A stretch of 62,734 bases of DNA, the filler included. It is 6 parts of 6 records of this genome, joined end to end, with 100 filler letters (N's around TTAATTAATTAA, not from the genome) between each part and the next. Parts side by side here need not be neighbours in the genome. Positions count along the whole stretch, not along the records: positions 1 to 13,740 come from DRR378314_1994; 5 more parts are not named here. One strand, given 5' to 3'. Positions 1 to 62,734 of this stretch are shown here, in pieces (within the stretch, counting starts at the first letter, position 1; every line of letters starts with the position of its first letter). The translations under genes and the position numbers were made by a program. A model generated the notes under the pieces. That model was not told the DNA's origin. It saw nothing but the letters and a program-made list of their open reading frames with translations, and did no database searches.

Positions 1-3000
1 CGGAAACGTATCGCCCATCCGGCCCTTTTCCACAAGAATCAGCAAGCACGAGAGGCCGTCGAGATCCTCGTACTGCTTGACGCTTCGGTGCACATGGTTA
101 CAGCTGGTGCACACGACCGAAAGTTCGCGCCGCGCCGCGTCGCCTCCGTGCGCAGGAGCGCAATACTCGGTGCAATCGCATCCTGCGCCTTCACAGGGAC
201 TGCCGCGCTGCAGCGCTTCGAAATGGAGGTGACGGTACCACGTGGCGACTACGTTGGTATCGTCCAGCGTGAACGTGCCCGTCTCGGGAAAATGCGACGA
301 CATCGGATGCCCGCCGCAGTCGACCATGGCGAGAAAGTCGGACGTCATGCCGAGGCGCAGCTGCGCGCTCACGACCGAGCGCCACAGCGTTCCCGCGATG
401 GCGCGTGTACGCACGCGCACAATGACCATCTGTCCGCGCCGCCCACGACGATCAGACCCATTCTCGCCAGAGAACAAATCCGTGGGATGCGCTCCCCGCC
501 CCGGTGCACTGTCACCGCGCAGAATACGGAAAAGCTGCTCAGTCTGCAAGATCGCCCCGTTGACAAGCGTCCTCACGCGAAGCTCGTCGGTCCGCGATAC
601 CGCAGTGACGACAGCAATGGCAAACTGCCGCAGCGTAGGCGCGATCAGCGCATCGTCGCCCCACGCGACGATCCCGACTCGAACGGTAAATTCGATGAAC
701 TGGTTCAAGTCCTCTTCGCCGGTCGGAGATTCGTTTTCTGTTCCTACATGGCGAGCTTCGTTGCCAACGACAGTGCCAAAGGACAGATACTCGTGCGGCA
801 GCCGCATCTCCCGCCGCGTCTGGTCGTGGGACAACACGCGCACGAGGTCGCGCACGCGCTCGGCGTTGATGCTGACACCAGCGTCGACAATCTGCACCTC
901 GCCTTCATCCCCGAGTTCTACCCTGTCTATCATGAACGCGTCGAGCCACCGCCCCCCTGCGGCTGGGCGCATTTCCGCCGGTAGCGTGTCCACATACGCA
1001 GTGGCGACGCGACACGCGATGCCGCGAAACTGGTCGACCTCCGACACTACAAAAGACTCTTTCCACTGCTGGAAAACTCGCCGCACCTCGGGTGACAGGG
1101 GCATGACTGTGCCCTCCGTGTGCTGCAAAAGACTCGAATACTTGCTCTCAAATTCTCTTGACGCTGTGCACAAGGTGCGGTCCCAACGCAATTCGGCCGT
1201 TTCATCCTGGACAACAGCTCGCTGGTCCGGTCCAAAGCGCTGTCGCGTCCAGAACAAGCACATCCCGAGCAAATACTCCGCAATGACACTATGATGAAGC
1301 CATTCCCCATTCGTCCGCTCGACGGCCGAGGCAAAGTGGGTGTCCTTGCGCAGCAGCCGAACGTGCTCGTTCTTCGACCGGAGAGACTGGAGGAAAAACT
1401 GCAGCGACAGGTACGAATGTGATTTCCACGGCTGCAGCATCATCGCGTGCGCGCGCGGCGGGAGCTGGTCGTCCGCGGAAAGCGGCGCAGACGCAACGCG
1501 GAGCGGATCTGCCGTGCTCGCGCCGAGCATGAGATAACAAATCGGGCCGTCTGCGGTCTGACCACTGCCTCTCGAATCAATGAGTGCAATCATGCCAAAC
1601 CCAAGATCAGCTCGCAGGTAAAACTTCGTCGTGCCATATCCGGTTCCATCGACGACAGCAAGAGCGCGCTCGCCGCTCGGCGAAGTGCAGAGCTCGACCG
1701 GCGCGAGCTCGCTATCACGCGCACTCGCCGCACCGTACGCAAGGCGCACTGTTCCCTCGCTGTAGCGGAACCAAAACGCGGGCATTCTCTCGAGTTCACC
1801 GTACGGTACGGCCTGTGCCACTACGGGGTGCGCAGACGGGCCAGATTCGAGCGAGAATGAGCCCCGGCCCCTCGTCGCCGTGAGCACGAGCGGGTGCTCT
1901 TCTTCCCAGTCGTCGCCGTCGGTGAACGCGCGGAGCACAAACGCGGACGAATCGCGCGTTACACCGTCCATGCCCAGAAGCTGGCCTTCCCACCACGATA
2001 TCACGTGCGGATCCGGGTGCTCACCGCGCGTCACAATCCCGAGCGTGTCTCGGTCGGAGACCAAGGGAACGCGCGATCGCCGCGTCAGGATATTGTACGG
2101 CGTAGCGCTGACCATGAGCTGTACGACGTTGCGCTTGCGCCCGTCCACAAACGCTCTGTGGTTGACAAACATGTCGTTCCCGCCGGTATAATTGCCCCGT
2201 TGACCGGTAAACGCCGTGATGCCATAGTGACATTCGTCGGCAATCATAACGTGTAGGACCTTGGGGTTCTCCACCAAGTTCGTGATTTGTTCAAGCGCTG
2301 CCCTGTTTGCTGCACTAACGCAGTACCGCAGCACGCGAAAGTGCGGCGTTTCCCCGTTCTCATTCGTAAATCCCAATCGCGGGTCATCGAAGCGCAGCTC
2401 GGTTTGGTTTGCGACCTCGATGTGGTTCGAAGTGAGGACGATGAAGTGCACGCCGGTGAACGATCCCGATCGAACCGCAGCGGCCACGCGATCAAAGATG
2501 ACGTTGGCCAGCTGCTGTTGTGCCGCATAAAAGAGCGGCGCGCGCTCCTCCGCGCCAGGCGGTAATGTGTACGAAAAGGGCTCGACACGCGCTTGTAGCT
2601 CGTCTACCGTCGGCTGCGACTCGGTCTCGACGCCTTCGAGCGCGTCCTCTTCGCCAGGCAGATGGTCTGCCGCCGCGAGCTGTTCCTCCTCGCGTTCGTC
2701 GTCACGATCAGCATCCTCGCGTATGCTCTCATTTACAATCACGGATTGCACAGTGTCCAGAAACGCTTGTACGTGTCTTGACTCTGCGTTGCGGAGAGCG
2801 GTGGTGGGGAGAAGCACCGCGAGCTGCGGCGGCTCGCCGTCGGGCTCGAGCTGCAGCGAGAACCAGTCTTCGCGCTCCGGGGCGCCGTCGGGGCTCAGAT
2901 GGCGGTAGCGCAGGAAAAATTCTGGCCTATCCAAGAAAACGTGCAATTCCTCGTCGGGTTCGCGAAGCGCGCTCAGCCACAGCAACACGGTGGCGCGCTG

Positions 3001-3297
3001 TGCGTCGGCTTGGTCGCGAATGTCGTCGTGCAAGCGCGCGAGGAGCTGCACCGTGCCGTCAAACGTCGACACCGTCGTCGTCGCGCCGGTGCCAAGCGCG
3101 CTCGCAACACGGTCAATGTGCACAACGCGGTGCGGAGGCACGCGCTCCGCCGTGGTATTGTTGGTTCGGAGCTCGCACACTGAAGCACACTCGTGTATGT
3201 TTGCAATGTCCGCGTGCGGGCTGACGACAACGATGTATGCATCGCCCAGGTCGCCGTTGGCTGTTCCCGCCGCGGGCGAGGCGGTTGGCGAGTCCAT
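1..3297 (-). CDS. GREB1-like protein with an apparently circularly permuted SF2 (DExH) helicase module; 3'-partial, at least 1099 aa
   Basis: Manual translation: ATG at 3297 (MDSPTASPAA...), open without a stop to base 1, which explains its absence from the ORF track. Motif II VMIADECHYG (DECH at 2227-2238), motif III MVSATPYNILT (SAT at 2101-2109), motif IV-like GQMVIVRV (~412-435), a Cys/His cluster CEGAGCDC...CTSCNHVH, and YEDLDGLSCLLILVEKGRMGDTFP at the edge, which resembles the conserved GREB1 block. No Walker A precedes DECH. Confidence 0.8.
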   Translation of the reverse strand, partial: MDSPTASPAAGTANGDLGDAYIVVVSPHADIANIHECASVCELRTNNTTAERVPPHRVVHIDRVASALGTGATTTVSTFDGTVQLLARLHDDIRDQADAQRATVLLWLSALREPDEELHVFLDRPEFFLRYRHLSPDGAPEREDWFSLQLEPDGEPPQLAVLLPTTALRNAESRHVQAFLDTVQSVIVNESIREDADRDDEREEEQLAAADHLPGEEDALEGVETESQPTVDELQARVEPFSYTLPPGAEERAPLFYAAQQQLANVIFDRVAAAVRSGSFTGVHFIVLTSNHIEVANQTELRFDDPRLGFTNENGETPHFRVLRYCVSAANRAALEQITNLVENPKVLHVMIADECHYGITAFTGQRGNYTGGNDMFVNHRAFVDGRKRNVVQLMVSATPYNILTRRSRVPLVSDRDTLGIVTRGEHPDPHVISWWEGQLLGMDGVTRDSSAFVLRAFTDGDDWEEEHPLVLTATRGRGSFSLESGPSAHPVVAQAVPYGELERMPAFWFRYSEGTVRLAYGAASARDSELAPVELCTSPSGERALAVVDGTGYGTTKFYLRADLGFGMIALIDSRGSGQTADGPICYLMLGASTADPLRVASAPLSADDQLPPRAHAMMLQPWKSHSYLSLQFFLQSLRSKNEHVRLLRKDTHFASAVERTNGEWLHHSVIAEYLLGMCLFWTRQRFGPDQRAVVQDETAELRWDRTLCTASREFESKYSSLLQHTEGTVMPLSPEVRRVFQQWKESFVVSEVDQFRGIACRVATAYVDTLPAEMRPAAGGRWLDAFMIDRVELGDEGEVQIVDAGVSINAERVRDLVRVLSHDQTRREMRLPHEYLSFGTVVGNEARHVGTENESPTGEEDLNQFIEFTVRVGIVAWGDDALIAPTLRQFAIAVVTAVSRTDELRVRTLVNGAILQTEQLFRILRGDSAPGRGAHPTDLFSGENGSDRRGRRGQMVIVRVRTRAIAGTLWRSVVSAQLRLGMTSDFLAMVDCGGHPMSSHFPETGTFTLDDTNVVATWYRHLHFEALQRGSPCEGAGCDCTEYCAPAHGGDAARRELSVVCTSCNHVHRSVKQYEDLDGLSCLLILVEKGRMGDTFP

Positions 3298-6200
3298 ACT
3301 CGTATTTCGCGCCTACAATCAGCAACTAGCGCGCGCAGCCAAGCACAATAGCTCGTCAGCAGACAGCATTGAACCCGCCAGCCGCAGTACATTAAGAGAG
3401 CAACTGTTGTTCAGCAGCTGTGAAAGGGCAGGGAACAATGTCATGTGCGGTACGGCATCGGATTCCGCTGCGCGAAGAAGACGCGCGCTCTGGTTGCGAC
3501 AAGAAACGCGGCGGCGGCCGAGCGCAGAGGCCGCGGGGCGCCGCTGCGGTGTTGGTGCTGGATCGCCGCCTTCCCGAGCAGAAGCGTGCGCGCGCACCGC
3601 TCCAAAAGGGAGTGCAACCACGCGCTATTCCCGTGGCAAGACAATAGAGGGTGGATTGCATGGACATTGCGCGGAACACATGCTAACCCTGCCATACGGC
3701 GCGCCTCAGCAGTTGCGTCGGAAATGCTTCGAGTGCTACGAGCAGCGGTGTGCGGTCTGCTCTGCAGAACGCTGCGCGACTCTTCGGGAAGACGTCGCGT
3801 TGGGAGGCAGCCCAGCGCGCTTCCCTCTGCGCGGGTGCGCGCGACACGGAGCGACGGCGAGGCGGGTAACTGGATTGCCACTCTTGCCGTCGCACTCGAC
3901 CGCATTGCACTCTAAGCTGACCTAGAGTACCATGGTACTCGTACAAGAAGGAAAAGGGTTATTCAAAACGCGCGTGTGCGGAAACCCGGGCGCCACAGCG
4001 CGATTCCGCGCTCCCTGGGCGTTGTCCGAACGCGCGCGCCGCACGGGACCCTCAGCCGCAGCGCGCTGGGGGCGCTGCGACGCCGCGACAACTAACGCAC
4101 TTTCCCCAGCACTGCCACCAGCACGCATGTACAGACTATTCTTTTCCTCCCATCTAGACGAATTCTCACTATACATGTGTATAATGTCTCAGTTTTGCAT
4201 CGGAAAACGTGTGACAGCGCGAGCTGCGACGGCTGCCGTGGGACGCGTGACACCGAGCGGTGAGCGGGGCACGTGCCCCCGTTCGCGCTGCTCAGCCAGC
4301 AACTCCCAGGGCTCCTGCGCTGTGCGAGCGCTGGCGTCTCGTGCGGTGCCTCTAAGCTGCGACCGCGCGACGCCCAGATCCAGCGCGCATTAGTATCCAA
4401 AAATACGTAGTTTGTACAACCAACGGTGACTTTGGAAGGCAATGGAGTTGGGTGACAGCGCGTGTCAGTGCACGGGTCTGCGACGCAGCGGTGGAGCGCC
4501 GCGCCACTCAGGGGCGCGCGCTCCCACGGCCGCTTGCCCCAGCACGAAGCCGCAGCAGGAGGCGGCCCCGAACCACAGTGGCGCATTCCCAACCCACGAA
4601 GCGCCCTTATCTACACATACATGATGTAGATGATAAAATGTCTTGAGTCAATGCGCTATGTGGGGTGCATGTGGTAGCAGCGCTTGGAGACGAACGGAGC
4701 CGACCGCAGCGGCGTCCTCGGGGCTGCTGAGGCGCTAGCTGGTGCCAGCGCAGCCGGCGGCCCCGAGGACGCCGCTGCAGCGCCCCAGCCACCACCGCCG
4801 CGGAGAGCGCGCCGGCCTCTTTCCCGCGCAGATGCGGGATGAAGATGGAAATATGCAGAACTTCGGATACCGTGCTGGGCGGTTGCCTTCGTGTGACCGA
4901 AGCGTACCTGGGGCGCGCGGAGCGACGCGAGCTGCGGATGCGAGCGCGCGTTTCGGCCGCCGAGTGAGAAACGCCGGTGCGACACGGGTGGGAGCAGCGT
5001 GAGCGGCTCGATGGGTCCCCAAGTGAAACGGGCTCGACGCTGTTCTGCACCGCCGCCGCCTTTGGAGCGTCACGGGACGCGACGGCGATGTCCTTCAGCG
5101 GCAGCCGCTTCGCCTCAAAAAAAAAAAAAGAGCGGCTTCTCTGTTGAGTTGCAGAAAGCTCATTACGCAACATCGTCTCACGAATAAAAAACATTTGTTT
5201 ATAACCGTATTAGGAAACAGCATGCGCACACGTTTCTCGCTCATCGTACACTTCTGTAACAGAATTGCTTCGACTTTCGTCACCCTACATTGTCCTGGTG
5301 TCATAGGGCCTGTACGCCGTGCTACTGCCTCTGCGAGACCAGCTTTCTTTGCAGCACGAGTATTTCAAGAGGAAGCATCACTCATACATGGAACTCAAAG
5401 TTTCTTCTTTGGAGCAACATAAATTGAATCTACCAAGAGTGCCACTCGCAAGTCGAATCAAGGGTCGACAGCGACTTTCAAACGTGCGCGGTCGCTTACC
5501 GCTTCCCGCTGCCAGAGCACGTTCGTGTATTTCGACGTTAGCGGACAAACGAACGCCGCTAACGCGACCGCGCAGCTGCCGCCGATGAGCAACTCTTTCC
5601 TTTTTTGTCAAGTACCAGGCAACGATCGATCTACTAATGACGCACGCGCCAACACGCGGACAGGGCGGGCGGGTGGGCGGATAGCAGCGGGAAGCGTCAG
5701 CAACGCTGCCAGGCCCACGCCGTCGGCTCCGCCAGGACGGCGGGTGTTGTGCGCGACGCAATGTAGCACTTCTTGGTATTTTTCAAGGATACCGGAGCGG
5801 AAACCGGATGTGAAAAAAGTTCGCGCACTTGCACTTCATGCAAGCTCTGAACTACTTTCCCTGTCGCAATTAAATCAATACAAGGCACCGGCAGTGCTCA
5901 AAGTTGTCGTGGGGGCAAAGACCCAATAGCGACAGAACTGGGGATTTCTTTGCGCAACGGAGGTCACAGCGCGTGTACGTCGTCCCATCAGCACAGTGAG
6001 TGTATCCGACACTACTCTACTACGGAGAGAGAAGATTCCGTGCACCTGCACTCATTTACAACGAGCGTGGCGATGAGTACCAGTGCCTTTCGGCGGCTAC
6101 ATTGCAACAAGTAAGGCACAATACGTGTACCGCAGGATACGAGAAGAGAGTTGAGTGGAATTAGGCTCGGGATTGCGCGGGCGCTCCCGAATCGCGCGAG

Positions 6201-7660
6201 CTCCAGTGGATTGGAAGAGCATCGCGTCAAGTGCAGTAGATAGCTCCGCGCCCTTCCGTTCCTCGTATCCCATTCGTATGCACCATGTAGCCGCACACTG
6301 CTCGTGGCAGTCTCACAGGGCACAATGACCCATCTTGCAACATTGGGACATGCTCGCGCAATATAAACGTAGGATCGGTGCTGCCAAATGGGCAGCTGGG
6401 GAGAACACCACGACAGTGATAAACACAGGGCAGAACCCTTGGGAATCATTTCGCATACAACCAACTTTCCAACAATTGCGACTCCTCCTCGTCACATACG
6501 CGCTCGTTCATACTACGCTTATTTTCTTCTCTGATGCAGTTGGTGCGGAAAGAAAACAAAACGCTCTAGCATGTGCACGCGGTGACGACGTTGAGCGTCT
6601 CCAAATCAACATCGTCCTCTGCCACGCGAGAAGCGCAGTGGAGCGGCGCCTTTTCCAGGAAGCAGCCACAATCGAATGGTCAACTATGTTCGTGGGACTT
6701 TGGTCAAAGATACGAATAACTTGTGTTTTTAGTGCGCGAAACCTTGTATTGTGCGCGAACTACAGCCGCATCACGTGTCAGCTGCTCTCGATGCCATAGC
6801 GCAAGAAGGCACGAGCAACGATGGGAAATCTCCATTTCCGTTACACAAGACGATGCAAAGCGCTGTATTGTTCGGTCACTTACAAAGTAACCAAACCAAG
6901 GAGTCACAAGAAAGTGTAGACTGGAATATGACTCCATCAATAACACGTTCTTTTCGCGCGCCAGAGACGCACAACGCTATTCAGATACGTCCATATACAT
7001 GAGGGGACACAAGGTAAGCTGCAAAGGAGCACAGAGGTGAGAATGTTTGGCAGAACGAAATGGCCCTAAAACTGGCGCGAAAAGGAGCCAAAGACACGTG
7101 AACCCTGCAAACCGCTGCAGTACCTTCACTTGTATAAATCATATTCTCCAAGGTACGACAAGGAAGCTCTTTCCAAGTTTTGGATCTACCGCAGCAACGA
7201 ATCGCAGCGTCGAGGCCTCGAGGAGCAGCGCGATAGAAACGCCGTCGTGCGCAATCGTAGAGAAACCAACCGCGAGGCACATTTGTTTCGCAGCTAGTTC
7301 ACCTGTCGCATGCGCTCGTATCCAGAGTTTTTGGTACGTCTTTCTCCACAATTTACCGGGCCGTTCCTTTTTTTCAGCGAATGTATCGGTCAATGGTAGG
7401 ACGAAAAGTTGTAGAGCTCGCTCGCGCGAGAATTGCTCTGGCCTGCACCGCAGTGAACCTCTCGCGTGCTCCAGACCCTGAACCACGATCCTCTCCCTAA
7501 CGCGCAAGCCCCAACACAGACGCACAAGCTGGAATCATGCACCCTTGTATCGTGTCACCAGCGCGTACAAGAATGCAAAACTCCATGAACTCATCCGGTA
7601 AAGGCCCGAAAGGTCGCTGGAGCATCGTCCTCGTGCAGCAAAGGGGAGTCGCAGCGCGCG

Positions 7661-10225
7661 CTACGCCCGACCCTGAAGAATCTCCTCGGTGGTCCCACAT
7701 AAATCATCGCTAAGAGCAACGAGAATATCCTGTGCACTCGGACGCTTCGTAGGATCGTACTGCAAACACTTTGCGACGATTTGTCGCAGATTCTCGCTCG
7801 GCAGCGCTGCGTGAGGAGACGGTACGTAATCGCCGAGCGCAACCTTGGAGTACAAAAAGTCTGCGAGCTCGCTCTCCGCCACTTCGCCGGAGTACGGAGC
7901 CTGAAGCGCAAAGACTTCGTTGATAATCAATCCAAACGACCAAATGTCAGATTTTGTTGACAACAGGTACTTGCGCTGCTCATCGTTGCGCACGAGCGCC
8001 TCCGGGGATCGATAGACGAGGATGTCAGTGCTACAATGCTCTGTGTCATTATCTTGATCATTCTTCTCCCGCATCACCATCAGAGAGTGTGTTTTCGATG
8101 ATCCAAAACCAGATAAAACGGCGCGATTGTCAGGAAATACGAGGATAGTTGAGGGCGATAGCGCCCGATGCTCGATCCCATGCGAATGGAGATAGACCAG
8201 GCCGCGCGCTGCTCCAATCAGAATGCGCAGCCACTGCTGCACGTCCGTTACAGACTCTTCAGCAATACAGTCGCGCACGGAAGATTCGGGAAACGGCTGG
8301 ATCATGGCGATTCCCCGAGGATCGATCGCGATTTTTGTCAATTCGACAATGTTTGCGTGTCGCGGAAGCGTTGTGAGAACGCTGATCTCGCGTTGCAGCG
8401 CTGTAACGGCTGGTCGAGGATCGTCGCAGCAGCGCACCTTGGACACCGCCGCCACCGCATCGCCGTTAACCACTGCACGGTAGACATCATACAACGGTCC
8501 GCTCCGCACGAGCTGGGCTGAATCTCCGGCAAGCGCCATTTCCATATCACCATACTTCATCTGCATGTCCGGCATAACGGTTTCCAACTCGGGAATCTGG
8601 AGAATTGGTCCTGCGCCACGTGGGTACTCTGTAACGGCTGCCGCTAACCGCTCCGCGTTTGCGCGACGCAGAGCGCCCGGAGCAACAACAATGTCTCGCA
8701 GAGGGGACTGTAAACGATGGATCTTGGACACTGTTTGAAGCGTATCCAAGAATTTAGGAAGTGTTTCATCGCATAACGCGCGATTCTTGGTCATATTGAT
8801 GACTTTCACGCGGCTTCCGCGCTCTGTACACGCGAAAATCGCGCTAATCATACCCGAGAATTCCGCCTCTGAGAGCAACTCGTGAGAAGAAACATTGCTG
8901 AAGACATCGACCTCCTCGCAGCCTGACGCAACAAGCGCAGAATACGCGAGTTTCATAGAGAGAAGAACGGCTTGATCTCTACGAAGAGCGTGGAATGATC
9001 GTGAAAGCGTCCATGAATAATCGTCGTTTGTGAATGTAGCGGAGAGAAACGCGCCGAGCTCCGCAACGTGATCGGCAAAGTACGACGTTGGTCGTCCTTC
9101 GTCGATTGCGAGGAGAACGAGGAGGGCGCGACACTCGTGCACTTTGTCGAGAACGGGTGTTTCCAACGCCAACGCGAGACAGAGGTGAAGAATGGCGGTT
9201 GCTCGACGCGGATTGTCGATCGAGGCGCGCGCGTGGCGAAGAAGGAGAGGAACGCGAGCTCGCACAACAGCCTCTTTCTTCGAAACTGAGCTGAGGAGGT
9301 ATCTGGTACCTGTGGGATCGCAGAACGAGCATTCACAAAGGATACTCGTGTACGCCTTGGCTGTACCGGTGTCTCTCCCACTGCTCTGCTCACTTGAGGA
9401 CTCGTTCCGTTCTCTCGGGTTTTCTGTTGTTGGTATGAGCTCTTCGTTGGGTCCACTCGCATACACTCCATTCCACCAGACACCATCCTTGTACGGGTAC
9501 ATTTGTTCAAACGAGCAACTATGTAACTCATGATTGGTAAAATTTCTGTGGTGATACTCGCGTAGAGTAGCACGTGCGTTCACATCAAACACGGCGACTG
9601 CAAAATTCACGCGCACGTACTCAGTAGCCCAGCTAGAACTCCACCTCGTTTCGGCGGGAGGAGCTGTCGTGGCAAACACATAACGCAAATCACTGGATAC
9701 GCCGCATGCCCCGCTTACAAAGGTAGTATTTAGTTCCTTATCTTTTTCGTATTTTTTTCTATTCTTTTGTTGCATGTGGCTGACTGTGCAAAATGTTTTC
9801 TGGTAAAACAAAACTGCCTGTTCGCGCAGAGAGACTGCTGCGCAATAGAACTTGCCGAGAATCACAGCAAGGTCTCCAACCGGCGAAAGAAGCACCTCCA
9901 TAACGCCACGCTGAGACTCTAAGAGATCGTCGATGTCACTGATATGTATGTCTGTATCTATTGCGCCATCCTGTACGTTCATTGTGTAGAGATGGGAGCC
10001 CTGGTAGATAATGATGCGATGGCTGTCGGGTAGGAAGACGAGCGCGTGCGGCTGCACCCTCTCGTCGCGCGCGGGCAACGCGTGCGCGTGCAGCCAGCGC
10101 CGCTCGAGCAGGTCCCAGAACTTGATGTACTCACTCTCGCGTTCCACAATTGCTAAAACCGTGCCATCAGCAGATATACTATATGTGTGAGAACTCAAAC
10201 TAGAATAAGGGTGTATCTTGGACAT
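7661..10225 (-). CDS. Multidomain protein: beta-propeller-like N-terminus and C-terminal TKL-like protein kinase domain, probably a pseudokinase
   Basis: Intronless ORF, first ATG at 10225. Kinase subdomains: REISVL..LPRHANIV, GLVYLH, YRSPE, KSDIWSFG, CLQYDPTKRPS. HRD is replaced by HRA and DFG by GFG. The N-terminus has WD40-like strands (ISADGTVLA..IKFWDL, LLSPVGD). Confidence 0.8.
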   Translation of the reverse strand: MSKIHPYSSLSSHTYSISADGTVLAIVERESEYIKFWDLLERRWLHAHALPARDERVQPHALVFLPDSHRIIIYQGSHLYTMNVQDGAIDTDIHISDIDDLLESQRGVMEVLLSPVGDLAVILGKFYCAAVSLREQAVLFYQKTFCTVSHMQQKNRKKYEKDKELNTTFVSGACGVSSDLRYVFATTAPPAETRWSSSWATEYVRVNFAVAVFDVNARATLREYHHRNFTNHELHSCSFEQMYPYKDGVWWNGVYASGPNEELIPTTENPRERNESSSEQSSGRDTGTAKAYTSILCECSFCDPTGTRYLLSSVSKKEAVVRARVPLLLRHARASIDNPRRATAILHLCLALALETPVLDKVHECRALLVLLAIDEGRPTSYFADHVAELGAFLSATFTNDDYSWTLSRSFHALRRDQAVLLSMKLAYSALVASGCEEVDVFSNVSSHELLSEAEFSGMISAIFACTERGSRVKVINMTKNRALCDETLPKFLDTLQTVSKIHRLQSPLRDIVVAPGALRRANAERLAAAVTEYPRGAGPILQIPELETVMPDMQMKYGDMEMALAGDSAQLVRSGPLYDVYRAVVNGDAVAAVSKVRCCDDPRPAVTALQREISVLTTLPRHANIVELTKIAIDPRGIAMIQPFPESSVRDCIAEESVTDVQQWLRILIGAARGLVYLHSHGIEHRALSPSTILVFPDNRAVLSGFGSSKTHSLMVMREKNDQDNDTEHCSTDILVYRSPEALVRNDEQRKYLLSTKSDIWSFGLIINEVFALQAPYSGEVAESELADFLYSKVALGDYVPSPHAALPSENLRQIVAKCLQYDPTKRPSAQDILVALSDDLCGTTEEILQGRA

Positions 10226-12892
10226 GGTGAAGTGGCGAGTGAGCAAGACCGGACATGAAGCTCCTAAGAGGAAAAACCTGCGCTAAGCGCGTGCTGGGAG
10301 AGCGCCGTACGGCCAGGCGGGAAAAGGGGTATATGAATTTTACCCCTAGTCACCAAATACGCGCTGCTGGTATGGAAAATGGGGACAGGCGAAGGAGCAG
10401 AGCGCAACCTGGCGGGAAAGGATGGATGTGAGAATGAAACCCTATTACGAGTACACGCGTTTCTATTTCCCTCTGTCGCGAGCCCCAACGATGCCAACGC
10501 CGGCTCGCCATGTGCTCGGAAGCAGCAACGGCAAGTCCAAACACCGCCAGCGCACTGGAAAGAGTCGATTGGAATAGTGATGCGCCCGCGGAAGCATATT
10601 CATTCTGGGAAATCGCTATCCGCACGGGATCGGCTTCTGGAAAAGTCATCTAGACTGCGGACGGACCACCGCCGCGCGACGGACAAGACCCATCCGGCAC
10701 GGCGAGGTGCTTCATAGCTTCAAACGACGCACCTGCTGTCCGACGGAGCTCGTTCTCCTCGGCGTGATAGACAACTGTTTCTGCGACTGACACAAACGAA
10801 ATTGCATAATATGGCCCCTGAGATAGTGCCATCGCCGATAGACGCGTCCACGGCGCTCCCCGCAATCGCAACATCGTGGTGGCGAATCGACAGGCAGAGA
10901 TTCAGCGCCGTCGGACCTGGGACAAAAGTGGTGTTTCGCGTCGTGAAGATTCGCTCCGCGCACGTCATTTGATTCAAACTGACACGCGGTGCGGTTCCAA
11001 GAGACCTCGCACGAGCCATCTGGAGACAATTCGGTCTTTGAAGGAAGATTTTGAGAGGAACCGAATACTTGCGAAAAAGCAACGTGAGACTTTTCGCAAG
11101 CACCGGAGTTTTCCACAAAGGAAAGATGGAAGAAGGATCCGCCACAGAGAAACGTCGAAAGATTGGCTGTCGAGAGCACCGACACCAAATGCCGTTGCGC
11201 AAAATAGAAAGGTAAATCGACAGGGAATTCGTCGCTTGATAACCCAATGACACCATACGTAGCTTGTAGGTCGGGGCTCGCCTGTTCGCGAAAGGGGTTT
11301 CTTTCCAACGGCGGTGTTTGTCGGCAAAGGCGGCGGCGGGAAGGCGCTTCGGTGCCTCAGCGTAGGGCTAGAAGCTTCCCGAGCGACAAGCAGCTCGCTT
11401 CTCGCTCAGAGTGTGCAAGCTGTTCGTGCAGGGAGCACGGCAAGCACGTGCAGAGTCCGCAGACGTACCTAGTTCGCCAATAAAACGAGCCAGCTATACG
11501 CGTCAAACTTGTCAGCGGAGTGAACGCTATGTCACCGTGCTCCACACGGTAATTGGGCTCCAAGCTGCATTTTTCATGTGTACACCGTTTACTGGCTGCC
11601 AACCTTGTAAGCTGACCGAATAACGGGTAAGCATGCACACACACTGAAATCGAGCTGCTGTGTCGAATGCAACACGAACGAAAGCTTCGCCACCTCTTCT
11701 CCTGCACCGACAACAATATTGCCATTTCTTCGCCATGAAGAAAGTTACGGTAGAAAGTTCGGCGAGAACGACAGTATCGAGCACTTCGCCGTGCCCAAAG
11801 GGCCGCGACAAGCTGCTGCGGGCGCTGCTCTTTCTGTGCAACACTCGTGGGCGCCAACGGTCAAGGTTTCGAAACCCGAACCGTTTCGCGCGCTGGCAGC
11901 ACATCGTCACTCCAGCGCCTTTCAACTCCCAACTGCAGAGCCGGGCCTTCTTCTGGCCATCAAGGGACAGAGAAATGTAACAAGGGACTTACTCACCCGC
12001 TCCTAGGTGTTCCTTTCGCTTTCTTCGACGTGCGCGCGATCGTTGTAGCGAGCCTGGGGCGACCGTTGGCTCCCACTTTGCACCCACACGCAGACGTTTC
12101 GCTGACCGAGCCACCAAGGATCTCCCCAACGTGCACGTCGCCCTCCTGTCAAAAACCATCGAGCTCGCGCCCGATGTCTTTGCTGTCGCAGCAGCCGACA
12201 AGCTCGCCAGAAAGCAAATGGATATGTACGTGTTCGTCATACGATCACTACTACGAATTGGCGAATGGAGCTCTGCCGCGTATTTCGAGGATTCGATCGC
12301 CAAACGCCACAGCGGCCAACGAGAGCGACGCGCCAACACCACATACGCCGCTGCTGCAAATTGTTGCAAACGGCTCGAAAGCTCCCAGCGGTTCTGCCCC
12401 GGTTGCTGTACAGCCAGCCGCGACCACCAAACACTGTGTATTCCATGACACACAACTGCCAGTGCTGTCTTCTTACGAATGGCGTGGCGAGGTTCTTGTT
12501 GGCTTGTGACATTGCTTTCGTCAGCAGTGCTGCTGCTTGCCGCAGGGAAACGGAGCGAACAGAGCGGCCGCGGAGGACAACCGAGCAGCGCGCGCAAGCT
12601 CACACTCTCCCTGCTCGCACGACGCGCAGCGTGTGCGAACAGAGCCCAAGGTACCGTATGAAACGGAAGGCCATGAGAACAACGTCGTGTGACATACGAT
12701 TTGGCATTACATACAGCTGTCAGGGGAGGAAATTCTCAGAGTGCCGCGCGGAGAGGAGTGGGGACTTCGTTGGGTATGTATTGGGAATATATTCGTCCTC
12801 GGAACTGCGGAGCGCTGCGCTCGCCCAACAGGCACGGAGACCGCGGTCGCGCAGTGAGTGAGAAAAGGAAAAGGCCAAAGATGTCAACTGTG

Positions 12893-13264
12893 CTACACTT
12901 TCCGTTTCTGGCCCTCGATCTTGTAAACGAATCCTGGTGCTGCTGCCACGCCGGACCGATTGTACGTGTTATGACGCGCGCCAGTCGCTTTGAGTAGCTT
13001 GTTCTCGGCTGCCCGCATGTTGTCGACCTTTTTTGCGACCATCTTGCCGCGGAACCCGTTTGCCGCGTGCGCCTGCAGCCGCGCCGCGGGATTCGTCGTC
13101 GAGCCGACGTACACGGCTTTCTTCGCGCTGGCCAGGAACGACTTTCCCGTTTTTGCTCGGGAGTTTTTCAAGGAAAGCTTGGCGGAAGAGGAGGATTTGG
13201 AGACTTTGCGCGGTGCTTTGGGCCGCGCGCTGGCGGAGGACTTTCGCGCTTTGGAGGTGGGCAT
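12893..13264 (-). CDS. Small basic protein: Lys/Ser/Ala-rich tail plus GIY-YIG-like domain, possibly circularly permuted
   Basis: 123 aa, ATG to TAG. Contains VYVGSTTNPAARLQAH, later AENKLL and HN, and a C-terminal GFVYKI. Confidence 0.6.
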   Translation of the reverse strand: MPTSKARKSSASARPKAPRKVSKSSSSAKLSLKNSRAKTGKSFLASAKKAVYVGSTTNPAARLQAHAANGFRGKMVAKKVDNMRAAENKLLKATGARHNTYNRSGVAAAPGFVYKIEGQKRKV

Positions 13265-13740
13265 CGTGCTTTGCTGAGAGTCGTGAAGGAGCGAGCCGCG
13301 CAGAAGGGTTGGGAAAAAGTGGTGCGGAGCCGCGCTGAAGCTGCGGCGAGCGCGCAGGCCGCGAATGCGCCGTGTTTGCGTACTAGGTCGCGATAATTTG
13401 TCGCACTCTCTTTTTGCTGATCACACACCTGGGAAAAGGTCTCCTCCTGCGTGCCCGACGGCGGAGGGAGGTTTGCTTCCCTTTGCACGTACGCGCCCGT
13501 TTCGATGTTAAAAATTTGTCAATATGGCGAAACTGGTAGTTCAAAAGGGTCTCGCTTGCCCTCTACCTTTCTGCCTCTGCTGGTGCAGCTCAACGGTTGG
13601 AATGGGGATCTGGTGGCGAGGTCGTATAGAGGTTGTCATCATAGGGCTTACGATTGCCTCCGCGGAGAGACAACGGTGCAAGTGCACCCTTTGCCGTTTC
13701 CTCGCTGTCAATTTCCCCTACCGCGTAGCCCTACTCCCTT

Positions 13741-13840
13741 NNNNNNNNNNNNNNNNNNNNNNNNNNNNNNNNNNNNNNNNNNNNTTAATTAATTAANNNN
13801 NNNNNNNNNNNNNNNNNNNNNNNNNNNNNNNNNNNNNNNN
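13741..13840. other. Artificial contig-joining spacer (N44-TTAATTAATTAA-N44)
   Basis: The same 100-nt spacer occurs five times; its core gives stop codons in all six frames. Confidence 0.97.
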
Positions 13841-15951: not shown

Positions 15952-16084
15952 GGTGCCCTCTGAAATCACCTGAACTGATCAGTTCACTCACGCCTTCCCG
16001 AGTCAAGGTTGACGTGGCTGGACCGCACGTCACTTACCAAATTCAATCTTCTTGACTCAGGCGCGACTGAACCGCTAGCGATGA

Positions 16085-16281
16085 CGTGATGGTTCTCGTG
16101 CCCAAACGGGCCGGGATGAAAAGGGAACACGGTGCGGTTCTGCCCGGATAATACCGGAAGGAACCCAGTCCGAGACTGCCCCCGCAACTGTAAGCGGAGA
16201 GCGATGTCGAAATGCCACTGGCCTTGATGGCTGGGAAGGTCGGCAAAGCAATGACCCGCAAGTCAGGAGACCTGCCATCAG
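16085..16281 (+). ncRNA. Cobalamin (B12) riboswitch
   Basis: Hallmark segments in order: GGTTC, AAAAGGGAACACGGTGC, ACTGCCCCCGCAACTGTAAGCGG, GCCACTG, GGGAAGG, B12 box AAGTCAGGAGACCTGCC. Confidence 0.95.
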
Positions 16282-16381
16282 GATGAAACTGAAACTTGGA
16301 CGGGGTGTCCGAGCAGGGTTAGACCGCAGACTTGCCGTCCCTCCTGACTGATGCCCCATTCCGCGCGCGGAGGGCGCATAG

Positions 16382-26945: not shown

Positions 26946-27045
26946 NNNNNNNNNNNNNNNNNNNNNNNNNNNNNNNNNNNNNNNNNNNNTTAATTAATTA
27001 ANNNNNNNNNNNNNNNNNNNNNNNNNNNNNNNNNNNNNNNNNNNN
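26946..27045. other. Artificial contig-joining spacer
   Basis: N44-TTAATTAATTAA-N44. Confidence 0.97.
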
Positions 27046-39494: not shown

Positions 39495-39594
39495 NNNNNN
39501 NNNNNNNNNNNNNNNNNNNNNNNNNNNNNNNNNNNNNNTTAATTAATTAANNNNNNNNNNNNNNNNNNNNNNNNNNNNNNNNNNNNNNNNNNNN
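39495..39594. other. Artificial contig-joining spacer
   Basis: N44-TTAATTAATTAA-N44. Confidence 0.97.
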
Positions 39595-45605: not shown

Positions 45606-45656
45606 TTCGGCCATTTATCCTTTTGTTGCACGACATGATTGGACTAAATGGGGAAC

Positions 45657-46628
45657 ATGCACGCCCTGCCACCACAGATTCTGTCCTGGTTTTCCTCCCG
45701 AGGCTGGTCGCTCCATCCGCACCAGCTGGAGATGCTGGCGCGCAAGGACGCGCCCGCCACCCTGCTCATTGCCCCCACCGGCGGCGGCAAGACCATGGCC
45801 GGGTTCCTGCCCACGCTGGCAGAACTGGCCGATGGCAGTCACGCGGGGCTGCACACGCTATATGTTTCCCCTCTCAAAGCGCTGGCGGCGGACATCAAGC
45901 GCAACCTCACCGGTCCCGTCGCCGAGATGGGCCTGCCGATCCGAATCGAGGACCGCACCGGCGACACGCCCTCCTCGCGCAAGCGGCGCCAGCGGGCCGA
46001 CCCGCCGCATATCCTGCTGACCACGCCGGAAAGCCTCGCGCTGATGGTGTCGTATGAGGATGCAGCGCGCACCTTCAATGGTCTGCAGCGGGTGATCGTG
46101 GACGAGGTACATGCGCTGGCCGAAAGCAAGCGTGGCGATCAGCTGATGCTGGCGCTGAGCCGCCTGCAGGCGCTCTGCCCCGATCTGCGCCGCGTCGGGC
46201 TGTCGGCCACGGTGGATGACCCGGCGGCGATTGCAAACCGTCTGGCGCGCCATCCCGATCCCTGTCCGATCCTGATGGCGGATCCCGGTCCCGCACCCGA
46301 CATCCGCATGCTGGAGGTGTCCGACGCGCCGCCCTGGGCGGGTGGTGGCGCGGCCTACGCCATCCCTGCAGTGCTCGACCAGATCCGCCAGCACACCACC
46401 ACGCTGATCTTTCACAACACCCGTGCGCAGGCGGAAATCTTCTTTCACAACCTGTGGCTTGCCAATGACGAGGGGCAGCCCATCGGCATTCACCACGGCT
46501 CGCTCGACCGAGTTCAGCGCGAGCGGGTCGAGGGTGCCATGGTGCGCGGAGAATTGCGTGCGGTGGTCTGTACCGGCTCGCTCGATCTCGGCATCGACTG
46601 GGGCGATGTGGATCTGGTGATCCAGATC
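45657..46628 (+). CDS. Lhr-type (ligase-associated DNA damage response) DExH helicase, 5' part
   Basis: APTGGGKT, SPLKAL, LTTPESL, DEVH, SAT, FHNTR, HHGSL, SLDLGIDWG. Confidence 0.9.
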
Positions 46629-46728
46629 NNNNNNNNNNNNNNNNNNNNNNNNNNNNNNNNNNNNNNNNNNNNTTAATTAATTAANNNNNNNNNNNNNNNN
46701 NNNNNNNNNNNNNNNNNNNNNNNNNNNN
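46629..46728. other. Artificial contig-joining spacer
   Basis: N44-TTAATTAATTAA-N44. Confidence 0.97.
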
Positions 46729-47202
46729 ACGCATGTGCGAAGGTACTCCTTCCTCGGGCTCGTTGCGGCGGTTGCGGTAGTCTGCGCGCTTCTCGTCGCG
46801 CTCGCGCACGCTCCACGCGGTTCTGCCACCCTACAGTGCAGGCGCGGGACGCATTCCTGCACACGCGCTACCGCCGGCGCACCTCCACGTTGTATATGAT
46901 GATTGCATCGATTCTACGCAGGTCAAGATCCCCGAGTCAATGCGGTAGTGTTGATCTTTGTCGTACACGGTCCACCGGTCTCACTCGAGCCGTGCGCGAA
47001 GCGAACGCGCCTTCCCACGCTGCACAGTCGCAGAAACCGCTGGCTCGCTGGGTGCACTCTGATGTGTATTTGTGTGTCTCGCATTTGCTGACGCAAGTAT
47101 ACGCGTGCAACGGCGCGCGATTGTGCGCATGGAAGGAGTATTGCGCTGGTTCTCCGATCTCGCTAACTCGAAAGTGTCTTCGGACCCTGCTTGATCGCGT
47201 AG

Positions 47203-48699
47203 GCGATGGCGCGCATGAACCAAACGGTGAAGCTGCCGCAAATCCAGTCCATTATGATGGAGTTTGAAAAGCAGACGGAGCAGGTACGTGGAGACGCAGT
47301 TAGGGAACTCGCGAAAGAGCGATCGATGAATCTGCAAACGGAACCAGATTACCAAAAGAACGTTACAATGATATATTCTGGGATGTATCTTGCAATTGTT
47401 GTTGGTGCTGCGAAAAGGGAACATACTGGGCAACTTCTTTGCGGCGAGAGAGCAGAAATGGAGGGACAAGACTATGCAATCGCTCGTTGTCGTGACTCAT
47501 CGCTGATTTGTATCGAAGGAAAAAAGTGGAACAATTTGTCGCTCCAATCTGAATTCTCTGTTTCTGTTGGGCATGATGCACTTTTTGATCAAGTACATGC
47601 GAGAAAGTATTAGCGTGAAGCAAAACAAATCTCATGACGTGTGGGAAAATGTTGATCGCATGTGTGCATTTCCGGTGATTCCAGATGGATATGAAGGAGG
47701 AGATGATTGGTGATACGGTAGATGAGGTTATGGAAGGAAGTGAAGATGAAGAGGTTCGTTGTCGGACAAAGGAGAACGATTCCTTTCCTTTGTATTCATA
47801 AAAGCGTGAAATAAGTGTGCGAGAGCGGTGTCGCTGAGGAACGAATTGTACTTTTGCGCGCGCGTGTGTGCCAAGTGCATAATTCGCGTGTAGAAAGTAT
47901 GTTCTTCCTCACAGTCTCTCGCGCTTCGCTCTCTCCCACGTCGCGGAGACGACCGTTGTGCGCAGCTGAGAAGGGAAAGAATGCGAACACAATCACATTA
48001 AATATGTGGTACTCATCAGAATGTATCTGGCACCGTGATGCGAGAAGGTAGTTCTTGGTTCGTCCTCTTTCATTCTGCTGCGTTTCACCATTCTTTCACA
48101 CACACACTCTCTCTCTTGTGACTGTCTCGCTCTCAGTTCGTTCTTTTCTCTGCCTAATCTTTCCCTGTACTTATGCATTTTCGCCCCGATAACAGCTGCG
48201 TCGCTCACTCAGCCTCATCGTATCGAATGCATCACTCTTGGGCGGTGCTGGTGTCTCATCGTGTTTTGGGTGTATTCCAGGAATCAGAAGCCATTGTCTC
48301 GCAAGTCCTCGAAGAGATCGGTATCAACGCCGCTGCACAGCTCTCGAGCGCCCCTGACGCGAACCGTACGTTATGCGGCATTCGCGACACAGCGCATAAC
48401 GGACGCGCTCCATACCAAGCACACATTGTCTTCGCAGCGTGTCAAGGCAGAACCTTATCGCTGCGACACGTTCCATGCGCTCGCGGCTGTGTCGTTGCGG
48501 AGACGCTCCGGATCGCCGCGGAAAGCGCAACGTGATGTTCGTGGTTGTTGCAGGTGGAGAGACGACGCGCGAATTGCTAACGTGTGCACGGTGCTGCTTT
48601 CGCGATGTGCGTGTGCGCGTAGGGGAAGCTGTGGCGGAAGGTGGTGAAGTGGCCGATAAGGACCTCGAGGCGCGGTTAGAGCGCCTGCGGAACGCGTGA
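47203..48699 (+). CDS. CHMP2A: ESCRT-III subunit CHMP2A/Vps2, last four exons (47203-47283, 47685-47753, 48281-48365, 48623-48699)
   Basis: GT-AG splicing joins in frame to AMARMNQTVKLPQIQSIMMEFEKQTEQ-MDMKEEMIGDTVDEVMEGSEDEE-ESEAIVSQVLEEIGI...DKDLEARLERLRNA*, ending in a MIM1 motif. CTAAC branch points lie near 47163 and 48577. Confidence 0.9.
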
Positions 48700-49228
48700 G
48701 ACGCGCCGCGCGGTCCTAGCCCCGTTCGTCTCCCTTTCCGCGACGACGTAATCATAGTTTTGTCGTTTGTGAATACACTGCCTAGTTGCACAGCTCCACG
48801 CTTGTCGCGAGATACCCCGCGCATCATCAGGACAATTTATTCTCTACCGGGACAGCTGATTGATACGCAACGCGGGTTGACAAGGGGCGAACCTACTGGT
48901 TTCCCCATTTTCGCCCAGAGCTCGCGCCGCGAATTACGATTCCTGCGCGGCAACAACGACGTACATTTACCAAGCCACAGCAGAAAACGCATCCAAAGGC
49001 AACAGCGTGAGCCGAGAGCGCTGTGCGGTGCGAAAGAGTATGCGCAGGACACGCTTCGCTCTCACTGTGTCGCTGCGGCGCAGAAAGCACATTGGCGCGG
49101 ATGCGACGAGGTTGCGCGCCCGCAACCAGCCCTGAGCGACGCGCACGGCGTTGTATGCACATAATGGCGCGCCCCAGCGCTTCACCCCATCGATCTGACA
49201 CAGCCGATGTGCTGCCTGTCGCGCGTAC

Positions 49229-52201
49229 CTGTTCGTCGACGGACATGCTGGCAACAGCTTCCGCCGCGCCGTCGGCGGCAGTGCCGCGGTCCTCGGGCTT
49301 CATGGCGGGGAAGAGCAGCACCTCCTTGATGTTGATGTTGTTCGTGAGGAACATCGTCAGACGATCGATTCCCAGTCCCCATCCCGCAGTCGGCGGCAGA
49401 CCGTGCTCGAGCGCAACGCAGAACGACTCGTCGTGCACCTGCGCCTCATCGTCACCGGCGCTCTTGTCCTTGGCCTGCTGCTCAAACAACGAGCGCTGCA
49501 CAGCGGCGTTGTTCAACTCTGTATACGCATTGCAGACCTCCTTGCCGCAGACGAAGAGCTCGAAGCGCTCCGAGAGTCCCGGTTCGCTGCGGTGCCACTT
49601 TGCAAGCGGCGACATAATCTGCGGATGGTCGCAGATGAACGTCGGGCTGACACACTGCGATTCGAGGTACTCGCCGACAAGGCGGTCGAGCAGCCGCGCT
49701 GTGGTGTGTGGTTCCGGGCACTCCACCTCGTGCTTCTTGCAGAGCTCGAGAAGGAACACGCGGCACTCCTCGGACGCAAAGTCCTTGGGAATCTCCACGT
49801 TGAGCGCCTCCTCGAGACCGCGGACCATGGAGATGCGGCGGAACGGCGGCGTGAAGTCGATTTCCACCGTCTTGCCGTCCGGGCCGTCGGGCTGGTACGG
49901 TACCTTGTACGTTCCCTTGATGTCAAACACAATCTGCGAGAGCATCTTCTCCGTGAGATCCATGAGGTCGTTGTAGTCCGCGTACGCGTAATAGAACTCG
50001 CACGTGGTGAATTCGGGGTTATGCGTGAGGTCGATACCTTCGTTGCGGAACTGCCGACCAATCTCGTATACACGCTCGAGCCCACCGACAATGAGCATCT
50101 TCAGGAATAGCTCAGGAGCGATGCGCATGTACATGTCGAGGTTCAGATCGTTATGATGGGTGATGAAAGGCTTTGCGGTGGCGCCACCAGGGATCATGTT
50201 CATCATGGGTGTCTCGACTTCCAGGAATCCGAGGTTGTCGAGGAAACGGCGAACGCCGGCAATAATCTTCGCGCGCGTGAACCAAGTGCCCCTTCGCTCG
50301 GCATTGGTGATCAAGTCCAGGTAGCGCTGGCGGTAACGGACTTCCTGATCCTTGATGCCGTACTTCTTTGACGGAAGCATGTGCATGCACGGGGTCAGGA
50401 GCGTGATCTCGCGGGCGAAAATCGACAGCTCGCCGCGCTTCGAGCGACCGGGGTAACCCTTGACGCCAATAATATCGCCGCGCCTCACTGTCGTAATCTG
50501 CTTTTCGAAAGCCTCAATGCTCTCGAAACTACGCGCATCCGCCATGATCTAAAACCGTAGAGGAAGAGAGGCAAACACGGGAAAAGCGAATGTGATGGCG
50601 GTGTGAAGCCAGTGAACGCAACGCGTCACTGAACCACGTGCGAGCGATCGGCAACACCCAAGGCAGCGATGCAAGCGTTACACCTCGAAAGCGAATGGCG
50701 ACGAATACTCGAATGATTTGGCACATATGACACAGAAGCGCGGCAATCAAGTATTGCACGACGTACCTGGATCTTGTACGCCTGATCACCACCTCCCTGG
50801 AGGTCGAAAAACACGAGCTTGGACGACGACGCGCGCGCTTGCACAATACGGCCCGCGAGCGCTTCGGAGACCTCCTCGTTTCTCTCACCATCCGCAAGCT
50901 GACTGTACTTGGCGATGTACTCGGCATTTGTCAGAGTGGTATGGAACTTGTGTGGATGCGTCACAAGATTCTCCGATGCCACCAGCTGTGCAAGCGCCTT
51001 GGTGCGGTTCTCAAAGTAAGCAGACGGGTCCACGCTCTGCAGGGGGGAAGGGCGGAAAGCGGTCGAGCGCGCGTGTGGCGGATATCGCAGTCAGTCGCCG
51101 GCGCAGCTGATGCGGAACGCCTAGTCCACATACGCTACGCAGACGCGGTGACATGCTCACCAGCTAATGTGCCTATGACTACATAACAATCACGTCAACT
51201 GTAGAAACAAATCAGTCCCGGCAGCACGGCAGGGCGCGCGCGGTGGCGGGCTGGCGGTGTCCACAGTGCACCGCGTCCCGATTGGGCAGCGCTGTGGCCG
51301 CCAACAGGACCACAGCGCCCCTTGCCCCTCCCGCTTTCCTTCTTGCGCGCGGCCAGTCGCTCTCCATCGCCGGGAGCGAGGGACGTATGGCACACTACGC
51401 AATGAACATCCAGTTTCGAACAACTAATACCAGTTCACAGAGCATTTTCTTTCCTACATGCCCAGCGCTTTGGAGCGCGTCGCCACGACGTGCAGCAGCG
51501 CGCCGTGCGTGCGGACCGCCCTGCCGCCCAGACTGCGTGCGCGCGCAGCCGCAGCCGCAGCCGCAGCCGCCGCAGTGCGGCGCAGCGGACCCAGGACCAC
51601 AGCAGCGCTCTTCTCCCAGAGCAGGCCTCACACGCCTCGCGAACTACATGGGCCATGTAGAGATCAATGGGTTACAGCTCACTCTTTGACCTGCCGGTAC
51701 ACGATGCGCGTGCCCGCGGAAACCCCGCGCAGCCAGCGCGCGTCCGCCACGCTCGCGCCCGTGCTGCCAGAGGAGGGGGGGCAGTAGTCGCGCTCCGCGC
51801 GAGCACCCAGGTCGCACGGCGGACGCACGGCGCCCAGCGACGCCCTTTCCCCACCCCCCAAATTATTCTCGCAAGCCCACACTGGATAAATTCTCTACAA
51901 TGGGGCCTGCACAAGGCGCTCGTGATCTGTCGTTTATAGGACTGACTGGCGAAAGTGGCGCGCACAGCGCGGATGGGGCAACAGCACGCACCTCCTCGTC
52001 CTGCACGAGCGAACTCTTCGGGTTCTGCGCTGGCTGCTCGGCCTCACGCGCCTTGCGCGCAGCCTCCTTCTCGGCCTTGCGAGCCGCCGCGCGCTCGGCC
52101 TTCTGGCGGCGCTTCAGCTCATTCTTCGAAAGGCCTTGCGTGTCGGCGTTCTCCTGCGGCGGTGCCGCCGTATCAGCGGGGACGGGCTCTTGGTCAGCCA
52201 T
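49229..52201 (-). CDS. KARS: Eukaryotic cytosolic lysyl-tRNA synthetase; exons 52201-51992, 51036-50767, 50548-49229; terminal exon unresolved
   Basis: [10 protein letters not shown] eukaryotic extension, [49 protein letters not shown]; phase-0 GT-AG introns. Confidence 0.95.
51545..51575. repeat. (GCAGCC)4+ microsatellite in KARS intron 1
   Basis: Read directly from the sequence. Confidence 0.8.
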
Positions 52202-55607: not shown

Positions 55608-55707
55608 NNNNNNNNNNNNNNNNNNNNNNNNNNNNNNNNNNNNNNNNNNNNTTAATTAATTAANNNNNNNNNNNNNNNNNNNNNNNNNNNNNNNNNNNNN
55701 NNNNNNN
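55608..55707. other. Artificial contig-joining spacer
   Basis: N44-TTAATTAATTAA-N44. Confidence 0.97.
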
Positions 55708-61700: not shown

Positions 61701-61801
61701 AAACGCGCGCATCTGGGAAAAATTTCTCGCAGGAATCGGGCGGCTTGTCACGAAAGCATCATATACCGTCGTTGCAGAAGAGCTCCGCACCCCCACAGAG
61801 G

Positions 61802-62680: not shown

Positions 62681-62734
62681 CTTGCCCGAACAAAAAAAAA
62701 AAGAAAAAAAAAAAAGAGAAAGATTCACAGGATA

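Follow-up and report, generated by a model that had tools for sequence, protein, structure and literature searches.

A divergent gene fragment encoding the N-terminal part of a GREB1-like SF2 helicase

A GREB1-like gene fragment at the end of a eukaryote-like contig

The window analysed in this work, a stretch of 62,734 bases, is composed of six concatenated contigs, three of them bacterial and three eukaryote-like. At its very beginning, on the minus strand of positions 1..3297, lies a real gene fragment that encodes a GREB1-like protein from its N-terminus through roughly half to two thirds of its length. A first-pass annotation, made from the sequence letters, had proposed here a hidden, circularly permuted superfamily 2 (SF2) helicase of the GREB1 family, coupled to a TET/JBP-associated glycosyltransferase (TAGT) and possibly to DNA glycosylation in a microbial eukaryote. 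The proposed family membership was borne out by a match to the Pfam family PF20692 (E 7.8e-38) and by a match to a profile built from the relatives of the protein (E 1e-83). Consequently, we regard as likely both the GREB1-like identity and the corresponding architecture, that is, a permuted helicase whose later parts are deduced from relatives. The identification is carried by the sequence evidence, and the evidence from predicted folds is consistent with it.

The open reading frame (ORF) comprises 1099 codons with no internal stop, starts with an ATG at 3295-3297, is preceded by in-frame stops 6 and 8 codons upstream of this ATG, and has its 3' end open at window base 1. Both a check of the frame and a chance test confirmed the earlier description of a stop-free minus-strand ORF running off the window. 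At a stop frequency of 0.0356 per codon, derived from the contig composition, a frame of 1099 codons would stay free of stops with a probability of about 5e-18. When the contig (bases 1-13740) was shuffled 200 times by mononucleotide, stop-free frames reached at most 369 codons (mean 205), against 1104 observed. The GC content at codon positions 1, 2 and 3 is 0.67, 0.46 and 0.72, respectively. The ORF is missing from the default ORF listing, probably because a frame left open at the edge of the source is included only on request.

The SF2 motifs named in the first-pass annotation are all in place: ADECH (motif II) at residues 353-357 (2227-2241), SATPYN (motif III) at residues 397-402 (2092-2109), the motif IV-like GQMVIVRV at residues 955-962 (412-435), and motif V, LILVEKGRMGDTFP, at residues 1086-1099 (1-42). 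The reported absence of a Walker A motif from the approximately 350 residues before DECH was likewise verified, and it extends to the whole fragment, since the patterns GK[ST], [AG]xxxxGK[ST] and GxG[KR][ST] have no match in all 1099 residues.

Pfam recognized PF20692 (cpSF2-GREB1, "Circularly permuted SF2 helicase found in GREB1 proteins") in two stretches of the ORF, with 131 bits at a cut-off of 26.2, and no other Pfam family at E<=1. A HMMER search of 1.84 billion representative sequences listed 150 matches at E<=1e-3, the best with an E-value of 8.7e-28 and none reaching 1e-30; these matches always consisted of two blocks, covering residues about 250-415 and about 947-1099. PF20692 was present in all 20 of the 150 listed relatives that were sampled for Pfam (P0003-P0016, P0020, P0022, P0024, P0025, P0027 and P0028). 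When the ORF was aligned with 39 relatives, it matched each alignment block through GRMGDTFP, and the leave-one-out profile of the 39 relatives, made without the ORF, matched it collinearly, residues 190-726 corresponding to positions 48-524 and residues 948-1099 to positions 624-755 of 1417. The approximately 660 profile positions that are missing from the ORF sit beyond the window. Of the columns that are at least 80% conserved in the relatives, 57 fall within the ORF, and 49 of these are kept, including D354, E355, H357, A398, T399, P400, R961 and G1095-P1099; another 29, with Q..GR and GKT among them, fall beyond the window. Conserved positions are thus retained at this rate in a frame whose chance probability is about 5e-18, which excludes both an accidental frame and decay.

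By sequence comparison, the ORF is a new and very divergent member of an already described family. A word-index homology search retrieved only P0001 and P0002, a sequence search of the PDB with the ORF gave just a 14.7-bit chance match, and the best scores in the ESM Atlas (0.79 and 0.76) were under the level of evidence.

Motif order in the relatives and the displaced Walker A

In the relatives, the motifs appear in the order QT..R, IADECHWG, VSATPxNLLT, GxMxIxRV, CxC...CxxCxHxH and LILVxKGRMGDTFP, and downstream of GRMGDTFP come DLRL, QELGRxCRY, AEPQIGKTG and then the motifs of the glycosyltransferase. The distance from GRMGDTF to the start of QELGR is 28-38 residues, and GKT occupies one column, approximately 95 consensus columns after QELGR, in 34 of the 39 relatives; four of the remaining five do not cover this column, and the fifth, P0040, reads KKT. 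A TAGT domain (PF20691) was identified downstream in 16 of the 20 Pfam-scanned relatives, including the three best matches. This arrangement agrees, in the same order, with what had been expected from the first-pass annotation, namely QxxGR followed by a QxGKTG-like Walker A and, after it, TAGT.

For the gene under study, a Walker A motif is lacking before the DExH motif, and the relatives point to a displaced copy downstream. Judging from them, the protein would run past window base 1 into motif VI (QxxGR), approximately 20-30 residues on. A strand-P-loop-helix element (consensus AEPQIGKTG), located approximately 100-180 residues past motif VI, would complete the ATP site of the first RecA domain, and a TAGT-type glycosyltransferase would most likely start approximately 350 residues past motif V, about 1 kb beyond window base 1. 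The intact DExH motif, which had been singled out as a property of this copy, is indeed present as DECH; it does not set the protein apart, given that the D, E and H are kept by 36-38 of the 39 relatives.

The missing Walker A could also be explained by an ordinary SF2 helicase whose Walker A is encoded on an upstream exon. The stops directly upstream of the ATG leave room for such an exon, and a neighbouring eukaryote-like contig probably has introns, since its lysyl-tRNA synthetase (LysRS) frame lacks the N-terminal part. Against this stands the observation that the relatives start at similar offsets, residues 201-277 of the query corresponding to positions 163-244 in the three best matches. 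Moreover, among 29 relatives searched with a regular expression, only P0002 has a GxGKS, which lies between the DExH column and SAT, and the family-wide Walker A is placed after motif VI. We therefore consider an upstream-exon Walker A, taken together with an accidental or decayed frame, to be highly improbable, and the permuted arrangement is retained in what follows.

Some relatives have a more complex organization. P0006 from Hondaea (4793 aa) and P0008 from Planoprotostelium (2887 aa) contain two full sets of helicase motifs (DEcH ... GRxGDTF ... QExGR) in one polypeptide. Elsewhere among the relatives, ankyrin repeats, a ZZ finger or a protein kinase at the N-terminus occur as additional modules.

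Domain layout and predicted structure

All the regions of the encoded protein lie on the minus strand. The N-terminal region (residues 1-254; 2536..3297) shows no recognised domain, contains an acidic linker at approximately residues 190-230, and has an AlphaFold2 (AF2) predicted local distance difference test score (pLDDT) mostly below 50. It is followed by the first RecA-like domain, devoid of its P-loop (residues 255-415; 2053..2535), with QTELR at 298-302, DECH at 354-357 and SAT at 397-399. Two inserts come next: a predicted beta-trefoil after motif III (residues about 433-627; 1417..2001), delineated by VIA-align and the family profile, and a mostly helical insert (residues about 628-944; 466..1416), delineated by secondary structure and pLDDT. 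The fragment ends within the second RecA-like domain, whose first part (residues 945-1099; 1..465) includes the motif IV-like block with the invariant R961, a Cys/His cluster (C1040, C1042, C1046, C1063, C1066, H1068 and H1070) and motif V.

Since the family profile matches residues 190-726, the long stretch that separates motif III from motif IV is, at least partly, a feature of the family. The portion of the helical insert up to approximately residue 726 is common to the family; the remainder shows poor conservation and has a low-confidence model, and the profile resumes at residue 948. The whole-ORF AF2 model is confident at residues about 250-415, 430-690 and 955-1095.

The beta-trefoil region aligns to the family profile, with W435, F559 and Y629 conserved. 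It dominated the fold searches with the whole-ORF model, reaching a VIA-align Z of 11.2 with a root-mean-square deviation of 2.8 A over 129 aligned residues, and it resembles ricin-B-type lectins, fascin, Kunitz and clitocypin-type inhibitors, and IL-1/FGF. A beta-trefoil in GREB1 is not described in the literature that was searched, and the paper that defined the family, or its supplements, may hold such a description. The literature search likewise turned up no paper on GREB1-like proteins of protists.

When residues 245-425 were modelled alone, the AF2 pLDDT was 80.3, and their VIA-align matches were mostly to domain 1 of SF2 helicases. The 50 rows listed (Z 6.2-8.2) comprised 33 helicases or SF2 ATPases, 5 other folds and 12 unidentified chains of large complexes; the 33 titles that we take to be SF2 include BLM, RecQ, DEAD-box proteins, Brr2, Hef, HrpA/B, RIG-I, type III and ISP restriction enzymes and CHD4, among others. 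As modelled, residues 245-425 are consistent with an SF2 domain 1 without its P-loop element.

Comparison with known systems

The closest counterparts of the ORF are the GREB1-like proteins of microbial eukaryotes and invertebrates, in which PF20692 is followed by PF20691 and whose motifs have the same order and wording. The named relatives (P0006, Planoprotostelium fungivorum, Palaemon carinicauda and Owenia fusiformis) also share with it a long insert that separates motif III from motif IV, and the lack of an N-terminal Walker A. Identity between these GREB1-like relatives and the ORF is just 36-47% over local stretches, and the distance from motif II to motif V, 740 residues in the ORF, is the longest seen, compared with 259-647 in the relatives for which both positions are known. 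The family, its permutation and the TAGT fusion are already curated in Pfam, and protist members are already named GREB1-like in GenBank, as is the case for GBG30820.1 (P0006, Hondaea fermentalgiana), labelled 'GREB1-like protein'. What is particular to the ORF is its strong divergence, its unplaced host lineage and its motif II-V spacing, the longest among the compared sequences.

Human GREB1 is described as a fusion of a permuted SF2 helicase with a TAGT/Fringe-like glycosyltransferase (PMC7968844, PMC6163654). A 2021 paper reports a mainly cytoplasmic protein that O-GlcNAcylates ER-alpha, with a catalytically inactive helicase and an N-terminal Zn-binding domain (PMC7968844). Human GREB1, the only member tested biochemically, is thus reported to act on a protein and not on DNA, and the ORF belongs to the same permuted SF2 helicase family as human GREB1 and GREB1L. 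In a comparison by description rather than by alignment, the ORF differs from human GREB1 in keeping DECH, SAT and motif V and in having no recognised N-terminal domain.

A second line of kinship concerns the glycosyltransferase. TAGT, a family name taken from Pfam, is related in the same sources to the base-J and phage DNA glycosyltransferases (PMC7968844, PMC6163654). The kinetoplastid base-J glucosyltransferase and the phage TAGT enzymes thus represent the family of glycosyltransferase that is fused to the circularly permuted SF2 helicase (cpSF2) in 16/20 relatives. In contrast to these enzymes, the visible part of the ORF is the helicase, and its TAGT part would lie beyond the window. The base-J and phage enzymes are stand-alone proteins that act on hydroxymethylated bases and, as reportedly set out by Iyer et al. 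in 2013, have no helicase fused to them.

Proposed mechanism and substrate

In SF2 enzymes, the residues of the DExH, SAT and motif V elements bind Mg-ATP and couple its hydrolysis. The visible part of the protein holds the three of them, and its conserved positions are retained throughout. With the downstream P-loop element supplied, as its position in the relatives suggests, the protein would be an active NTPase motor on nucleic acid. Such an ATP-driven SF2 motor would bind, or track along, nucleic acid and bring the fused glycosyltransferase to its substrate; the fused TAGT would then transfer a sugar to a hydroxymethylated pyrimidine in DNA or to a chromatin- or RNA-associated protein, as in human GREB1, and the beta-trefoil may help to recognise the substrate or a sugar.

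Hydroxymethylated pyrimidines in DNA would be a reasonable substrate because of the kinship of TAGT with the base-J and phage DNA glycosyltransferases. Nevertheless, a DNA-glycosylation step appears rather unlikely to us. The complete scenario, in which an unsampled marine eukaryote lineage uses an active, ATP-driven permuted helicase with a lectin-like beta-trefoil and a fused TAGT to add sugars to hydroxymethylated bases along its own DNA, is less likely still. If true, it would be the free-living equivalent of base J synthesis in kinetoplastids, with the sites picked by a motor and not by a DNA-binding dioxygenase.

An alternative that we consider possible, albeit doubtful, is that the GREB1-like enzyme glycosylates proteins rather than DNA and that its helicase module serves only for localisation or binding. 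This is what has been reported for human GREB1 (PMC7968844), and no TET/JBP family was detected in the eukaryote-like contigs, of which just about 29 kb are visible. However, the human helicase is called inactive in the same paper (PMC7968844), yet DExH, SAT and motif V are preserved in the ORF and in most of its relatives, as are QELGR and GKT in the relatives; this retention points to a working motor. The kinship of TAGT to DNA glycosyltransferases, as given in the sources cited above, is a further argument against a protein substrate.

The proposal of a permuted helicase motor with a fused glycosyltransferase faces several difficulties, which we set out together here. The ORF stops inside motif V, so that motif VI, Walker A and TAGT all fall beyond window base 1, and none of the 747 frames of the window contains another fragment of the GREB1-like family. 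TAGT was found nowhere else in the window, either by Pfam on 85 frames or by the family profile on the 747 frames; the 85 frames of the eukaryote-like contigs contain neither a TAGT nor a TET/JBP family, in about 29 kb that are far too little to judge a genome. The whole-ORF AF2 model is poor, with a mean pLDDT of 59.8 and 440 residues below 50, and Foldseek gave no match at E<=0.001 with either this model or that of residues 245-425. With VIA-align Z values that are middling and Foldseek without a match, the fold evidence for the helicase domain is not decisive. The reading of DNA as substrate, in turn, is weakened as an analogy because human GREB1 is reported to be a protein O-GlcNAc transferase of the cytoplasm whose helicase is inactive. 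Finally, TAGT was not seen at E<=0.001 in four of the 20 scanned relatives (P0007, P0024, P0027 and P0028), as would fit a permuted helicase with no fused glycosyltransferase and with a partner that is separate or absent. Such a helicase-only protein seems improbable in view of the TAGT found in the other 16, the three best matches among them, and of P0007 (867 aa), which looks like a fragment and ends soon after motif VI. Since the window lacks the informative half of the gene, the fragment by itself settles no open question.

GREB1-like proteins are widespread in eukaryotes, and only the vertebrate protein, whose helicase is described as inactive, has been tested; DNA glycosylation by the motif-intact versions of protists and invertebrates is a published prediction and not a result. 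A divergent ORF that keeps the conserved positions helps to define the essentials of the family, and it draws attention to the predicted beta-trefoil inside the helicase.

Host and wider occurrence

The eukaryotic host suggested by the first-pass annotation was upheld, as the contig of the ORF is eukaryote-like, encodes a TKL-like kinase and shows sparse Pfam support, and the relatives are eukaryotic. All the named relatives come from eukaryotes, namely Hondaea fermentalgiana (a thraustochytrid), Planoprotostelium (an amoebozoan), Palaemon (a shrimp), Owenia (an annelid) and a EukProt transcriptome entry. The host is probably a microbial eukaryote and a marine one, the habitat being a weak hint from a single marine-metagenome run, X1, which holds 5% of the sampled words of the ORF. 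On the ORF, this run yields one 268-base contig with 2 differences, covering 1268-1535, and short partial matches; neither end of the ORF is reached.

No RNA run carrying ORF words was listed, and the exact 60-mer of window positions 1-60 is absent from genome_contigs and metagenome_contigs. Protein-guided scans found no relative in the JGI metagenomes or in the IMG/VR viral contigs. By these comparisons, the ORF is strongly divergent, without a close relative in the 1.84 billion representatives, the JGI metagenomes and IMG/VR. A candidate locus in genome_contigs (L010; 24% identity, E 2e-4) was rejected as a chance match because it lies inside a PMT_2-type ORF beside topoisomerase I and Era-like genes.

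Composition of the window and neighbouring genes

The six contigs are separated by spacers of 44 N, TTAATTAATTAA and 44 N, at 13741-13840, 26946-27045, 39495-39594, 46629-46728 and 55608-55707. The middle three contigs (13841-46628) are bacterial, encode RsgA, DnaX (tau/gamma), a GntR-aminotransferase regulator and similar proteins, and match the bacterial genome G001 at 69-98% identity, with two levels at about 70-80% and 96-98%. Neither the contigs at 1-13740, 46729-55607 and 55708-62734 nor the GREB1-like ORF match this genome, and these three contigs look eukaryotic. With three contigs bacterial and three eukaryote-like, the source assembly is a eukaryote mixed with at least one bacterium.

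The Pfam scan of the eukaryote-like contigs covered 85 of the 108 stop-to-stop frames found, each of at least 110 aa, and only a kinase and a tRNA synthetase passed the cut-off. Beyond the GREB1-like ORF, in bases 3424-13740, 2 of the 37 scanned frames had Pfam support, one being the kinase and the other a below-cut-off GIY-YIG match (12896-13420, minus strand, E 3.1e-4), which may be an exon fragment or a chance match. Rfam and tRNA scans of the eukaryote-like contigs gave no match.

The kinase (7661-10246, minus strand, 861 aa) is TKL-like and lies on the same contig and strand as the GREB1-like gene, 4.3 kb upstream of it. Its N-terminal region of 580 aa has no Pfam match and precedes a C-terminal kinase domain; among solved structures, this domain is best matched by a MAP kinase kinase-like protein, B-Raf and RIPK1. 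Kinship with the kinase that is fused to the cpSF2 in P0024 was considered and rejected (BLASTP E 0.32).

The tRNA synthetase is a cytosolic-type LysRS frame (48893-50545, minus strand) on another eukaryote-like contig. Its best solved relative is the human enzyme, with an E-value of 5.4e-197 versus 1.7e-119 for the best bacterial-type row, and its top database matches, approximately 70% identical, are in insects and green algae. Residue 1 of the frame aligns with approximately residue 89-157 of the solved human LysRS chains, and about 130 extra residues follow the catalytic core; from this alignment, the N-terminal anticodon-binding part is probably encoded on an upstream exon.

Additional features were recorded elsewhere in the window. 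On the eukaryote-like contigs, a below-cut-off match to Snf7 (47203-47610, plus strand, E 2.2e-4, 27 residues) may be an exon fragment or due to chance, and a 310-codon frame (61802-62734, minus strand) that runs off the window end matches no Pfam family and not the GREB1-like family profile. The bacterial contigs carry a DEAD-box helicase frame (45648-46676, plus strand), interrupted in its Helicase_C domain where the contig ends at 46628, and a cobalamin riboswitch (RF00174, 122 bits) at 16073-16293 on the plus strand.

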